Source of the DNA: a virus
Lineage: Duplodnaviria; Caudoviricetes
IMG/VR virus record: IMGVR_UViG_2546826724_000006
Span: 23,029 to 87,028 of that record
DNA length: 64,000 nt
Reading direction: 5' to 3' (one strand)
Shown: piece after piece, positions 9,573 to 28,286 of the stretch
Numbering within the stretch: the first letter of the stretch is position 1
How the letters are laid out: the number at the start of each line of letters is the position of its first letter
Position numbers and translations under genes: made by a program
Notes under the pieces: generated by a model
Databases searched by the model: none
What the model was told of the DNA's origin: nothing
The model's input: the letters and a program-made list of their open reading frames with translations, nothing else

Positions 9573-9998
9573 ATGAACCTTCAGGAAGCACGTACTCAGT
9601 TTCTCGCCGACAAGGACGCTCTCGCTGAGAAGGGCGTTCACCTCAACGGCGTCGTGATGTATGCGACGCCCGAGATGAAGCGGGACAGCACGCTCGCGAT
9701 GGACGCTCAGCCGGTTCTTCAGACCGCGCCGAGCGGCGGCATCCCGGCGTTGCTCACCACGACGATCGACCCGGACGTGATCCGCGTTCGCTTCTCCCCG
9801 ACCAAGGCCACCGAAATCTTCGGTGAGCAGCAGAAGGGCGATTGGCGGCAGGACACGATCGCGTTCGGCGTGGTCGAGCAGACCGGCGAGACGTCGGTGT
9901 ACGGTGACTACGCCAACAACGGCTCCGTCAACGTCAACATGAACTGGCCGCAGCGTCAGCTCTTCCGCTACCAGACCATTTCACAGGTAGTTCACTAA
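9573..9998 (+). CDS. Major capsid protein (DUF2184), 5' fragment truncated by insertion
   Basis: GGAGA RBS; LAMDAQP..GIPALLTT..KGDW..YGDY..NWPQRQ..YQTI, then a stop within the element. Confidence 0.92.
   Translation: MNLQEARTQFLADKDALAEKGVHLNGVVMYATPEMKRDSTLAMDAQPVLQTAPSGGIPALLTTTIDPDVIRVRFSPTKATEIFGEQQKGDWRQDTIAFGVVEQTGETSVYGDYANNGSVNVNMNWPQRQLFRYQTISQVVH
9969..9979 (+). repeat. attL core TACCAGACCAT
   Basis: Identical to 28276-28286 (13/14 as TACCAGACCATyTC). Confidence 0.92.
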
Positions 9999-10010
9999 TA
10001 ATCCCTTTCG

Positions 10011-10145
10011 TATCAATACCTTAGGGCGCCTCTCATGGCGCCCTTTCCTTTGTCTACTGATTACCACCAGCACATTATATATCAATGGGTTACAGCCGTT
10101 GACGGCTGCTACACATGCCATGACGCGCGCCATGGCCGCGCCACC
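10011..10145. promoter_or_regulatory. att accessory sites: two IHF consensus sites and arm-type repeats
   Basis: TATCAATACCTTA (10011) and TATCAATGGGTTA (10080) match WATCAANNNNTTR; GCGCGCCATG at 10125 with degenerate neighbours. Confidence 0.75.
10023..10052 (+). terminator. Intrinsic terminator just inside attL
   Basis: AGGGCGCC-tctcat-GGCGCCCT followed by TTCCTTTG. Confidence 0.7.
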
Positions 10146-10168
10146 GCAATCGCATCTCAGAGACTGCT

Positions 10169-10381
10169 ATGGATCAGCTTCATGGTCGTGACGAAGGCGA
10201 GGTGCTGACCGGCGCCAAGGCCATCGCCAACAGGTTCGGGTTCACCCCTCGGCAGATCTACTATTGGGTAGGCCACGCTGGGTTCCCGGTTTTTCACATC
10301 GGAAAGATCATCTGTGCTCGGCCGGCCCACGTGCGTCGCTGGATCGCTGAGCAAGAGGCGGCAGCACGAAAGGCTGGCTGA
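10169..10381 (+). CDS. Excisionase-like winged-HTH protein
   Basis: LTGAKAIANRFGFTPRQIYYW..PVFHIG..ICAR..W; first gene after attL. Confidence 0.75.
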   Translation: MDQLHGRDEGEVLTGAKAIANRFGFTPRQIYYWVGHAGFPVFHIGKIICARPAHVRRWIAEQEAAARKAG

Positions 10382-10382
10382 C

Positions 10383-25807: not shown

Positions 25808-25857
25808 CCGCAACAGCCCGGCCGTGGCTGGCGGCCGGGCGCACTAGGAGATCAGAC

Positions 25858-26994
25858 ATGGCAAGCGTCCGACTGAGGCGGTGCAAGGGCAAGAAGGGGG
25901 CGATGGTTGAGGTTTGGGTCGTGGAGTGGACCGACGCCAAGCGCAAGCGGCATCGCCATACCCCAAGGCCCAACACCAAGGCCGCCGCCGACAAACTCGC
26001 GCGTAAGCTCGAAAAGGATCCGCACCTTTCGAATAGATTTCTACCGATCACCGTCAAAGACGTTTGCATGAATTGGCTTCGCCATATTGAGCAACGTTAT
26101 GAGGACGGGGACAACATGTCTATGGAAAAACTCCGGCAAAATTGGAGCATCGTTTTCAAAAACATCATTCCATATCTGGGCGATCTTAAGGCGGCCGATC
26201 TGTCGCCAATCCATGTGCAAGAATTTTCCGACATGATGAGAGACAAAAGACGTGGAGCCAAGTCTCCAATCGTAATCAGGAACACAATCAGCGTACTTGG
26301 TCGCGCCCTTACCGAAGCGCAGCGGCTTGAGATTATCCCTCGCAACGTCGTTAAGGACGTGCCGCCACATATGCCGAAGATACCGAAGGCTTCGATCGAA
26401 GTTCCGGACCGATCTGACCTGCGCCAGTTGCTAAACAATGCGGACGGCGCAATCGGCCTTATGGTCCGCATAGCTATCTTCACGGGCTTGAGAGTGGGAG
26501 AAATCCGCGCGCTGATGTGGCCACAAATTGATTTTGAGAAAAACTTGATCCACGTCAAACATTCTGCGACGCCTAGAGGAAAGATCAAAACTCCGAAAAC
26601 AAAGGCTGGAAATCGAACTGTCCCAATACCGCCGATGCTGACCTCTGAACTCCGTAAATGGAAGATTGCCAATATCTCAAATCGAATGGGCTTTCTGTTC
26701 CCCAACTCAAGATGCCCAGCAGAATTGGCGATAAGCCAAACACAGGTTCAGAATTTGTGGCGAAGGCTTAAAGTTAAGAGCGAGGTTAAGCCAATTCATT
26801 TCCATGCCTTGCGGCACGCAGCGGCCAGCTTGTTCATCGAAACAGGTCTCTCTCCGCAGAGACTAAAGGTCCTTATGGGGCACGCAAATATCAACATGAC
26901 TTTCGATACCTACGGCTATCTCTTCCCGGACGACGGTGCGGCACACATTGCTAGTACGCAAGTGGAGACCACTCTACTGAACGGGGTGCTGTGA
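25858..26994 (+). CDS. int: Tyrosine integrase 1
   Basis: TGLRVGEI, KTKAG, HALRH, MGH, TY catalytic set; lower GC than neighbours. Confidence 0.92.
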   Translation: MASVRLRRCKGKKGAMVEVWVVEWTDAKRKRHRHTPRPNTKAAADKLARKLEKDPHLSNRFLPITVKDVCMNWLRHIEQRYEDGDNMSMEKLRQNWSIVFKNIIPYLGDLKAADLSPIHVQEFSDMMRDKRRGAKSPIVIRNTISVLGRALTEAQRLEIIPRNVVKDVPPHMPKIPKASIEVPDRSDLRQLLNNADGAIGLMVRIAIFTGLRVGEIRALMWPQIDFEKNLIHVKHSATPRGKIKTPKTKAGNRTVPIPPMLTSELRKWKIANISNRMGFLFPNSRCPAELAISQTQVQNLWRRLKVKSEVKPIHFHALRHAAASLFIETGLSPQRLKVLMGHANINMTFDTYGYLFPDDGAAHIASTQVETTLLNGVL

Positions 26995-26995
26995 G

Positions 26996-28210
26996 ATGGC
27001 TAGCGTTCGCAAAAGAACCTGGACTGGGCCGGACGGGAAACCCTGTGAGACCTGGACCGTGGAGTTCACCGACTCTGATGGTCGCCGTCGCCGTGAGACA
27101 CCTAAGAGCGGTCTCAAGAAGGATGCCGAGGCAATCCGCAAGCGGATTGAGCGGGAGATGGACGACGGGACGTTCGTGGCCGCCTCGCAAACCGTGACGG
27201 TGGCCGCGCTTTGTGACCGCTATCGCGAGCATGTGGAGGCCAAGCTCCGTGACGGTCGAATTGGTCCCGCTCGTATCATCCAGCTCGACTACCATTTCAA
27301 ATCCATCAAGAAACATCTCGGATCCGTTCTGGCGACCGATTTGACCCCTGACATGATTGACCGGGCCTATGTAGCCCTTGTGAAAGACGACGGATTGGTG
27401 CCGACAACCGCTAAGCATCGGCTCTATACCCTGAAAATGATGCAGGACTTTGCCGTCAAGAAGGGGCTTATGGTGAAGCTCCCGGCCGATGCCGCGCTCA
27501 AGGAATTGCGGGGCATCGAACGGAAGCCCATCCGAACCTTCAGTCGGGACGACGCGGTATTGCTCATAAAGACCGCCTCGGTCCGCCGACCAGGAGGACG
27601 GCCGTACAATGCGGCTCTACTGGAATGCCTTGTCAACCTTGCCGCGTTCTGCGGGCTTCGGTACGGGGAGATTATTGGTCTCACGCGCGCGAACGTGGAT
27701 TTGACGGGGCGCATGATCCATGTGCGTCAGAGCTTCTGTCGCTATACGGTGAAACTGAAGGGACCAAAGACAGCGGCGGGCGTGCGGGATGTCCCGATGC
27801 CTATGCATGTCGTCGCTCTTGTGCGGCGTTGGATTGAAACCTACTCTGTTCCGAACAGCCTCGACCTCGTGTTCACCATTGCTGAAGGGAAGTGGCTGGA
27901 GCAATCCAATTTCCGCAACAACATGTGGCTCCCGTTGCTGAAGCGCGCAGGGCTTGAGCACAGCGATGCGCTGCACTTCCACAGCCTTCGGCACTTCGCG
28001 GCGTCGTGGATGATCGAGTGCGGCATGCCGCTCACCGATGTGGCGCGGATCATGGGGCACAGCAAATTCGACATGACGTTGCAGGTTTACGCGCACCCAG
28101 TGCATTCGCCGGCTCATGCGCGCGAAGCGATTGATCGCATGGCGGATCGGTTCCTAGCGCTGCCGAAGACCATCGAACTGCCGGTAGCGGCGCCACAGAT
28201 TGAAGCCTAG
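26996..28210 (+). CDS. int: Tyrosine integrase 2
   Basis: CGLRYGEI, KTAAG, HSLRH, MGH, VYAH; adjacent to attR. Confidence 0.93.
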   Translation: MASVRKRTWTGPDGKPCETWTVEFTDSDGRRRRETPKSGLKKDAEAIRKRIEREMDDGTFVAASQTVTVAALCDRYREHVEAKLRDGRIGPARIIQLDYHFKSIKKHLGSVLATDLTPDMIDRAYVALVKDDGLVPTTAKHRLYTLKMMQDFAVKKGLMVKLPADAALKELRGIERKPIRTFSRDDAVLLIKTASVRRPGGRPYNAALLECLVNLAAFCGLRYGEIIGLTRANVDLTGRMIHVRQSFCRYTVKLKGPKTAAGVRDVPMPMHVVALVRRWIETYSVPNSLDLVFTIAEGKWLEQSNFRNNMWLPLLKRAGLEHSDALHFHSLRHFAASWMIECGMPLTDVARIMGHSKFDMTLQVYAHPVHSPAHAREAIDRMADRFLALPKTIELPVAAPQIEA

Positions 28211-28286
28211 GCGCGCCATGAGCGCGCCATGGCAAAAAATGCCACGCTAAATCAGAGGGTTAGTGGGTGTAAATTTACCAGACCAT
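28211..28286 (+). repeat. attR: arm repeats, IHF-like site and core
   Basis: GCGCGCCATG x2 (28211, 28222), AATCAGAGGGTTA (28250), TACCAGACCAT (28276-28286). Confidence 0.88.

Follow-up and report, generated by a model that had tools for sequence, protein, structure and literature searches.

The 64-kb stretch of DNA studied here (the window) makes up bases 23029-87028 of an 87,028-bp provirus record, IMGVR_UViG_2546826724_000006, and holds a prophage with an integrative element of 18,307 bp inside its major capsid gene. We consider it fairly probable that this is a site-specific, phage-satellite-like element, placed by a tyrosine integrase at a short core within a conserved capsid motif, and that it is helper-embedded in the sense of the helper-embedded phage-inducible chromosomal islands (HE-PICIs), i.e. 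the integrative satellites inside prophage late genes described by Tommasini, Mageeney and Williams in 2023 (PMC10111431). In contrast to these, it would represent a different family with unrelated integrases.

The capsid frame starts with the ATG at 9573, passes through the residues YQTI and ends at a stop codon at 9996-9998, six codons into the insert. It is picked up again with the YQTI at 28276 and continues as far as the stop codon at 28969-28971. At both places stands the 11-mer TACCAGACCAT, of which there are just two copies in the window (9969-9979 and 28276-28286). When bases 9980-28286 are deleted in silico by a script, an open frame of 1,092 nt is left, encoding 363 aa. An earlier note on this DNA had claimed both the break at YQTI with resumption in frame and the single 363-aa capsid protein after removal of 18,307 bp. 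The former agrees with the 11-mer positions and our reading of the frame, the latter with the script and with the homologs: from residue 1, 2 or 5 to residue 363, the joined product aligns with each of eight intact IMG/VR homologs (8/8), at 43-50% identity.

The two pieces match adjoining parts of the profile of PHROG 264 (major head protein; see Table 1), and in a six-frame search of the entire 87-kb record they are the sole matches to this family. They are one gene, split, and there is no second copy in the record. Further, all six capsid homologs in the 146 genomes of the genus set introduced below are unbroken. The core falls in the conserved capsid motif [YF]Q[TV]I.EYG, and compared with the three nearest intact capsid genes it differs by one base in each.

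The same prophage also exists with an intact capsid gene. Public runs were searched with helper sequence only (window 5000-9979), and four runs, all in the form of contigs, were compared over 9000-28999. In run X24 a contig of 1,983 bp joins 9968 to 28276, skipping exactly 18,307 bp, and the 11 letters of the core fit either side of the joint. The flanks of the joint contain no mismatch over 9000-9968 and 28276-28657 (969 and 382 bases), and the remaining coverage of the insert in this run consists of short, diverged pieces only. Run X24 comes from a separate study and has a different organism label from run X1, which is the possible source of the record. The contig is an empty-site allele, and hence the insert is a discrete mobile element rather than a product of the assembly; the mismatch-free flanks indicate that the insertion is recent and precise. 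The element entered through recombination at the 11-bp core. The two further runs, X2 and X3, gave short or diverged pieces without a joint at the attachment (att) sites, which says nothing on excision.

It could be suspected that the juxtaposition of prophage and insert is an artefact of assembly or binning: the provirus record is cut from a larger assembly, and the window differs from the X1 contig by a 2-letter indel. However, independent Logan contigs of X1, 19,141 and 27,419 bp long, span attL and attR at depths of 316 and 323, respectively. In addition, site-specific recombination would leave just the trace that was found in another run, namely an exact skip of 18,307 bp and an overlap of 11 bp, and for practical purposes this rules out misassembly. 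Junction misassembly had been named in the earlier note as something that would refute its reading; with both junctions crossed in X1 and an exact empty site in X24, we regard the probability of an artefact as negligible.

The surrounding prophage is the presumed helper. According to CheckV the provirus record is 91% complete, and it has an integrase at its left end. On the 5' side of the capsid gene the head morphogenesis protein is MuF-like, and on the 3' side there are neck, sheath, tape measure, hub, wedge and fibre genes. Judged by its gene families, the prophage is a contractile-tailed temperate phage (myovirus type) with Mu-like head genes.

Of the open reading frames (ORFs) of the insert, 20 were passed to family searches, and 19 of these lie on the + strand, the same as the capsid gene. 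The order from attL is a helix-turn-helix (HTH) protein, a RuvC-like protein, a tail chaperone, two unknowns, an AAA_25 protein, a serine recombinase and a small ORF overlapping the 511-aa large terminase (TerL). There follow two unknowns, a baseplate protein, a hub, a tape measure protein, a minus-strand secreted protein, two unknowns, a Rha/KilAC protein and finally two integrases, which are in tandem and point outward. The insert gave no match to a capsid or portal family, and none of its ORFs matches the sheath, tube, wedge or fibre regions of the helper. It lacks genes that a virion of its own would require, and its gene content is satellite-like. Four of its products (chaperone, baseplate protein, hub and tape measure) have 45-64% identity to those of the helper, though in a different order, and the TerL resembles the helper TerL in its last 75 aa only (37% identity, E 9e-9). 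What the earlier note had listed, namely integrases, a helicase, a terminase and tail paralogs with no capsid, portal, tube or sheath, is in agreement with this, with the exception of a xis-like gene, which is not established; the 70-aa ORF in question has only sub-threshold Pfam HTH matches.

Table 1. Positions in the window of the split capsid gene, the integrative element with its genes, and the late modules of the presumed helper.
Feature	Position	Strand	Basis
Major capsid gene, N-terminal piece through the att core	9573..9979	+	PHROG 264, profile 10-110; translation
attL copy of the 11-bp core TACCAGACCAT	9969..9979	.	Two copies in window; 11 letters fit either side of the X24 joint
Integrative element, 18,307 bp, one core copy counted	9980..28286	+	Skipped exactly by X24 contig; ORF map
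attR copy of the 11-bp core	28276..28286	.	Two copies in window; X24 contig
Major capsid gene, C-terminal piece	28276..28971	+	PHROG 264, profile 107-321; PF09950
Terminator-like hairpin, 44 bp inside attL; 8 pairs (7 G-C), then T-rich tail	10023..10044	+	Consensus scan only
70-aa HTH protein, candidate regulator/excision factor	10169..10381	+	phrog_18541, E 2.3e-12; Pfam HTH below cut-off
RuvC-like Holliday junction resolvase	10634..11107	+	phrog_1770, E 4e-21
Tail assembly chaperone, paralog of helper 37508-37993	11190..11666	+	phrog_1932, E 8e-38; 58% identity to helper copy
AAA_25 (RepA/primase-helicase-type) replication protein	12611..13861	+	PF13481, E 1.4e-35; phrog_906, phrog_239
Small serine recombinase	14237..14950	+	PF00239, E 1.8e-28
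Candidate small terminase (TerS-like), overlaps TerL start	15664..16035	+	Position only; no family match
Element's own large terminase (TerL)	16032..17567	+	phrog_2, E 9e-21
Two unknown proteins, 159 aa and 257 aa (all-helical model, pLDDT (predicted local distance difference test) 70)	17580..18829	+	No family match; homologs in G106 and G102 elements
Baseplate protein paralog and baseplate hub	19051..20595	+	PF22759, phrog_196; 64% / 45% identity to helper 43503-44201 / 42643-43506
Tape measure protein with tail lysozyme domain, two frames in window	20605..22844	+	phrog_9570, profile 3-245 and 261-595
Rha/KilAC antirepressor-type protein	24938..25807	+	PF09669, PF03374
Tyrosine integrase 1	25858..26994	+	PF00589, E 8e-25
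Tyrosine integrase 2, ends 65 bp before attR core	26996..28210	+	PF00589, E 6e-26
Helper head module: TerL, portal, head morphogenesis, protease/scaffold, minor head protein	2826..9547	+	PHROGs 2, 146, 324, 2229, 2122
Helper neck and contractile tail module: sheath, tape measure, hub, wedge	33325..45998	+	PHROGs 222, 205, 9570, 196, 6

The element has many relatives. These were studied in a set of 146 species-representative genomes of one genus, which was reached via a Methylobacterium locus and in which the named protein matches are to Methylobacterium or Methylorubrum. TerL homologs are present in 30 of the 146 genomes, and the surroundings were examined for 28 copies in 26 genomes, chosen by TerL (left out were G057:C54, G106:C305, G106:C73, the G107 fragments, G112, G071:C2, G110, G047:C33 and a broken G054 copy). 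Directly upstream of TerL, a TerS-like homolog is found in 26 of the 28 copies (none detected in G076 or G103). In most copies a tyrosine integrase, belonging to one of two unrelated types, is located 6-7 kb upstream; for G045, G047, G057, G071, G122 and G130 no integrase was detected or the stretch ended early. A primase and/or AAA_25 protein is present in most copies and a serine recombinase often, and most also have a conserved 150-aa ORF about 9 kb downstream of TerL. Tape measure homologs occur in at least 12 copies, two of which were checked against PHROG (phrog_28 in G137, phrog_9570 in the window), and the G021 copy has a tail chaperone. A family copy spans about 16-18.6 kb, and inside none of the examined copies did our own protein panel detect a capsid or portal homolog.

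Flanking ORFs were tested at five loci, and 6 of 10 have cellular Pfam domains, in four of the five loci, which indicates that those members are free-standing islands and not parts of larger prophages. The closest relative, in G106, has a TerL that is 72% identical and homologs of the two unknown proteins that follow TerL. Its hub, neck and tape measure genes are 44-60% identical to those of the window's helper, while the ORFs flanking this element are not phage-like in appearance. A satellite family would be expected to show just such a recurrent, size-limited and capsid-less pattern, and it is likely that this is a new one with an odd gene set.

A second member embedded in a prophage head gene was found in genome G137. 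It is 18,441 bp long and lies between 13-bp direct repeats inside the portal gene, whose two pieces cover positions 22-348 and 343-586 of the PHROG 146 profile; the helper TerL is located upstream and a head morphogenesis gene downstream, all co-oriented. Its genes include an HTH protein, AAA_25, a serine recombinase, a TerS-like protein, TerL and a tape measure, with Rha and an integrase at the right end. This integrase is just 29% identical to either of the window integrases. With the window included, insertions into prophage head genes thus make up two of 29 family copies, and they occurred via different integrases.

Several observations weigh against the element being a satellite of the prophage in which it resides. 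First, the other 27 of the 28 copies show no late-gene pieces at their ends, so embedding is the exception. Second, we studied loci with relatives of integrase 2, obtained by scanning genomes, IMG/VR and metagenomes with profiles from integrase alignments (80 loci each; 25-49% identity, with the closest relatives, at 56-60%, outside the set). In these 240 loci no piece of a capsid gene, or of any other late gene of this helper type, was found beside the integrase. Here as for the family copies, late-gene pieces were sought with our own protein panel, by tblastn in the case of the integrase loci, which has limited sensitivity. Third, the strong terminator-like hairpin just inside attL argues against late transcription from the helper reading into the element, which is an idea proposed for HE-PICIs (PMC10111431); together with the distal integrases it suggests a control other than this read-through model. 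Fourth, the TerL tail of the G137 element is unlike that of the TerL of the surrounding prophage. Fifth, no joined form or excision product is present among the contigs of run X1, but contigs say nothing on excision. Finally, the reading frame of the element's tape measure gene is broken in the window, near 21298-21375.

The first two of these observations are what would be expected of a mobile, phage-derived island without any tie to a helper, whose integrase happened or evolved to use a capsid site and whose insertion inactivates the prophage or competes with it. The integrases of HE-PICIs are, further, known to make off-target insertions (PMC10111431). The earlier note had proposed a search for split capsid genes and for empty alleles; the empty allele was found in X24, but the six genus capsid genes and the 240 integrase-relative loci contain no further capsid-embedded copy. 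However, an island of this kind does not readily account for the G137 member, which sits in another head gene, was inserted by a different integrase and is also co-oriented. Neither does it account for the tail paralogs, 45-64% identical to the prophage's own genes, the helper-like tail of the TerL, or the location of the core in a conserved capsid motif. In general we find this explanation rather unlikely, but it deserves serious consideration.

The broken tape measure frame, on the other hand, could point to a decayed remnant of a second, related myovirus prophage instead of a dedicated satellite. TerL, chaperone, hub, baseplate and tape measure proteins do belong to the same PHROG families as those of the helper, and an outward-pointing integrase next to attR is prophage-like. 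However, 28 copies from 26 genomes agree in their size and in their limited set of genes, which makes random prophage decay unlikely; the gene order is unlike that of the helper, and the ORFs are dense and open. The recent, precise insertion that the empty-site flanks point to does not fit a decayed prophage either. The frame break is probably an assembly indel error in a GC-rich repeat, because the X1 contig has two letters fewer at 21298 and omitting two letters there gives one tape measure frame of 745 aa, against 808 aa for the tape measure of the helper. We therefore judge decay to be improbable.

Returning to a satellite embedded in its helper, the gene content suggests how such an element might work. 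While it is integrated, the prophage would make no capsid protein. Upon induction an integrase, perhaps with the small HTH protein near attL, would excise the element and thereby rebuild the capsid gene, and the element could replicate by means of its AAA_25 protein. The TerS-like/TerL pair would then pack element DNA into proheads made by the helper, with the helper-like C-terminal tail of the element TerL docking on the helper portal. The chaperone, tape measure, hub and baseplate paralogs are predicted to enter tails that the helper builds, and the Rha/KilAC protein may act on the repressor of the helper.

What the earlier note had read as a satellite in its helper is therefore kept with respect to a precise, excision-restorable insertion in the sole capsid gene, the absence of capsid and portal genes, the satellite-like content and the co-orientation. 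The architecture itself is not new, as the note had supposed, since HE-PICIs are in print (PMC10111431). That paper describes 491 elements; their 14 sites are distributed over nine lambda-cognate late genes, with the commonest site in the capsid gene; all are co-oriented, and none brings a replacement sequence. The same source describes that satellites capture helper late genes and shows excision experimentally. The element in the window resembles HE-PICIs in disrupting a prophage late gene (the major capsid gene) with a short identity block at both ends and without replacement sequence, and in being co-oriented with the interrupted gene. It also has late genes that resemble those of the helper, and relatives at chromosomal sites.

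Other properties set the two apart. According to the same source, the zone order of HE-PICIs is Integration - Bro - Replication - Late with an upstream, inward-pointing integrase; Phage_AlpA beside the integrase is the signature protein of PICIs; the attP contains a doubled TGTATTGC motif at about -81 and +132; and the hosts named are Escherichia, Salmonella, Klebsiella and Arsenophonus (PMC10111431). In contrast, the window integrases are located downstream and point outward; in many of the element's chromosomal relatives the integrase does lie upstream. A six-frame search of the 87-kb record gave 0 matches to AlpA (PF05930) at E <= 0.1, and the TGTATTGC motif has 0 matches in the window. The host is of Methylobacterium type, i.e. 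an alphaproteobacterium and not a member of Enterobacterales, and the helper is not lambdoid but contractile-tailed with Mu-like head genes. The element carries its own TerL and a tape measure/hub module in place of a capsid gene, and at 18.3 kb it is larger than an HE-PICI (about 11 kb). We also compared the integrases by BLASTP with that of the HE-PICI founder, Eco567.11capE of E. coli NRG857c (11capE integrase, L329:9504-10736): integrase 2 is not significantly similar (E 0.029), and integrase 1 is 20% identical over 395 aa (E 3e-7). By BLASTP identity, as distinct from a tree, both are outside the 11capE clade. The window element would thus function like an HE-PICI, but it is not a member of that family.

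Three other systems share some of these properties. Capsid-forming PICIs (cf-PICIs) encode capsid and portal and are known to take only tails from the helper; like them, the window element brings its own packaging genes and would depend on the helper for the rest of the virion, but it has tail-tip genes and neither capsid nor portal. The satellite P4 uses a chromosomal tRNA site and is not known to carry TerL or tail genes. In common with P4 the window element has a contractile-tailed helper, its own replication protein and a putative factor for regulation of the helper, while it differs in residing in a capsid gene, in having TerL and tail genes and in the absence of AlpA. A lead towards the P4 protein Psu was not borne out either. 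It came from a language-model hint only, for the ORF at 18056-18829; PF07455 matched none of 10 family members at E <= 10, and no Psu chain was found in a PDB profile search or by Foldseek. In the skin/sigK, SPbeta/spsM and nifD elements, finally, a gene interrupted by an integrative element is rebuilt by precise excision. Here, unlike in those cases, the gene that is interrupted is part of another mobile element, and it is presumably the insert that benefits and not the cell. Excision-restored host genes are discussed as 'regulated gene integrity' in PMC10111431.

A 2025 preprint on the EPIPs of Mycolicibacterium reports that these satellites have a gene for a tape measure protein and states that no other satellites do (PMC12822802), which makes the tail-tip module of the present family unusual. 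EPIPs have a serine integrase and a small terminase, are found in Actinobacteria and, in the part of the preprint available to us, are not described as embedded in a helper gene; the window element shares the tape measure gene with them but is so embedded.

As far as our literature search extends, the helper-embedded satellites in print come from a single clade of integrases, and the cognate late genes in their bacteria are lambda-like (PMC10111431). In the window this cis arrangement recurs in a second class of bacteria, where the helper has a contractile tail and the element comes from a different family. In a literature search, 'phage satellite' and 'Methylobacterium' were not found together; the supplements of PMC10111431, which could list relevant hosts, were outside this search. 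We tentatively propose, with somewhat divided opinion, that the relatives form an undescribed alphaproteobacterial satellite family (30 of 146 genomes; own terminase, often chaperone, tape measure and hub, no head genes), and that embedding in head genes, the capsid gene here and the portal gene in G137, arose independently of the enterobacterial HE-PICIs by means of unrelated integrases. If this is a true satellite family its make-up is unusual, with an own large terminase, tape measure and tail-tip genes but no head genes, and if the embedding is independent, helper embedding would be a convergent satellite strategy and not a quirk of one integrase clade. The occupied site in the window and the empty site in run X24 provide a natural experimental pair, to which the embedded relative in the G137 portal gene can be added.

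A number of further searches were made for relatives and target sites. Among the integrase-relative loci, six distant ones from metagenomes (25-30% identity) have a match to the N-terminus of TerL downstream or nearby, while tblastx of the downstream flanks gave noise only. No tRNA gene stands beside the integrase in the 24 integrase-relative loci studied in this respect (two have one elsewhere), and there is none in the window. Scans of IMG/VR with the single proteins integrase 2, TerL and AAA_25 gave no relatives, and exact-pattern scans for the right end of the element gave none in IMG/VR or metagenomes. Against deposited phages the best identity of integrase 2 is 27.5%, which is uninformative.

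Some additional observations concern the element and its family. Homologs of the 70-aa HTH protein adjoin related integrases at other loci; in two metagenome contigs (L266 and L269) the homolog lies about 300 bp downstream of an integrase relative, the order expected of an excised circular element. Over 26001-27000 the GC content falls to 0.498, compared with about 0.65 around it. Integrase 1 is located in this trough, 2 bp ahead of integrase 2, and may have been acquired later. The C-terminal tails of the family TerLs vary past a conserved GHDD motif (the window pair is at 17440-17567 and, in the helper, 3858-4070), and the TerLs of the G021, G019 and G076 elements end in ..DLL, as does the TerL of the G137 helper prophage. 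In G016:C108 (L211, L212) two family copies are arranged head to head, with divergent integrases at 14065-15438 (-) and 15468-16739 (+). In G057:C63 and G130:C90 a gene after TerL is 50-53% identical to the first 180-210 or so residues of the protease/scaffold protein of the window's helper, i.e. a captured piece of a head module. In the window itself, the ORF at 17580-18059 matches the C-terminus of the helper scaffold in 11 of 20 positions (E 0.032), a weak lead for scaffold mimicry.

The word GCGCGCCATG(G) occurs near both ends of the element, at 10118, 10125, 28211 and 28222; as an arm-site word it was rejected, with 11 occurrences in the window and 6.2 expected by chance. An Rfam scan of 9000-29500 gave a single match, which is sub-threshold, and listed neither C4 nor isrK. 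The match is to sRNA-Xcc1 (RF02221) at 23392-23482 (+), covers the whole model with 43.5 bits against a gathering threshold of 53 (E 7.4e-5), and sits between the minus-strand secreted-protein gene and the ORF at 23551.

In the surrounding prophage, three tandem PHROG 2085 paralogs (function unknown) are found directly 3' of the capsid gene, at 28943-30363. The head morphogenesis gene (582 aa; 5764-7626) shows a GC dip to 0.59-0.60 and has an opposite-strand ORF of 355 aa at 6559-7626. In the early region of the prophage, upstream of the window at 13121-14161 of the record, there is a DUF7666 protein with collagen triple-helix repeats.

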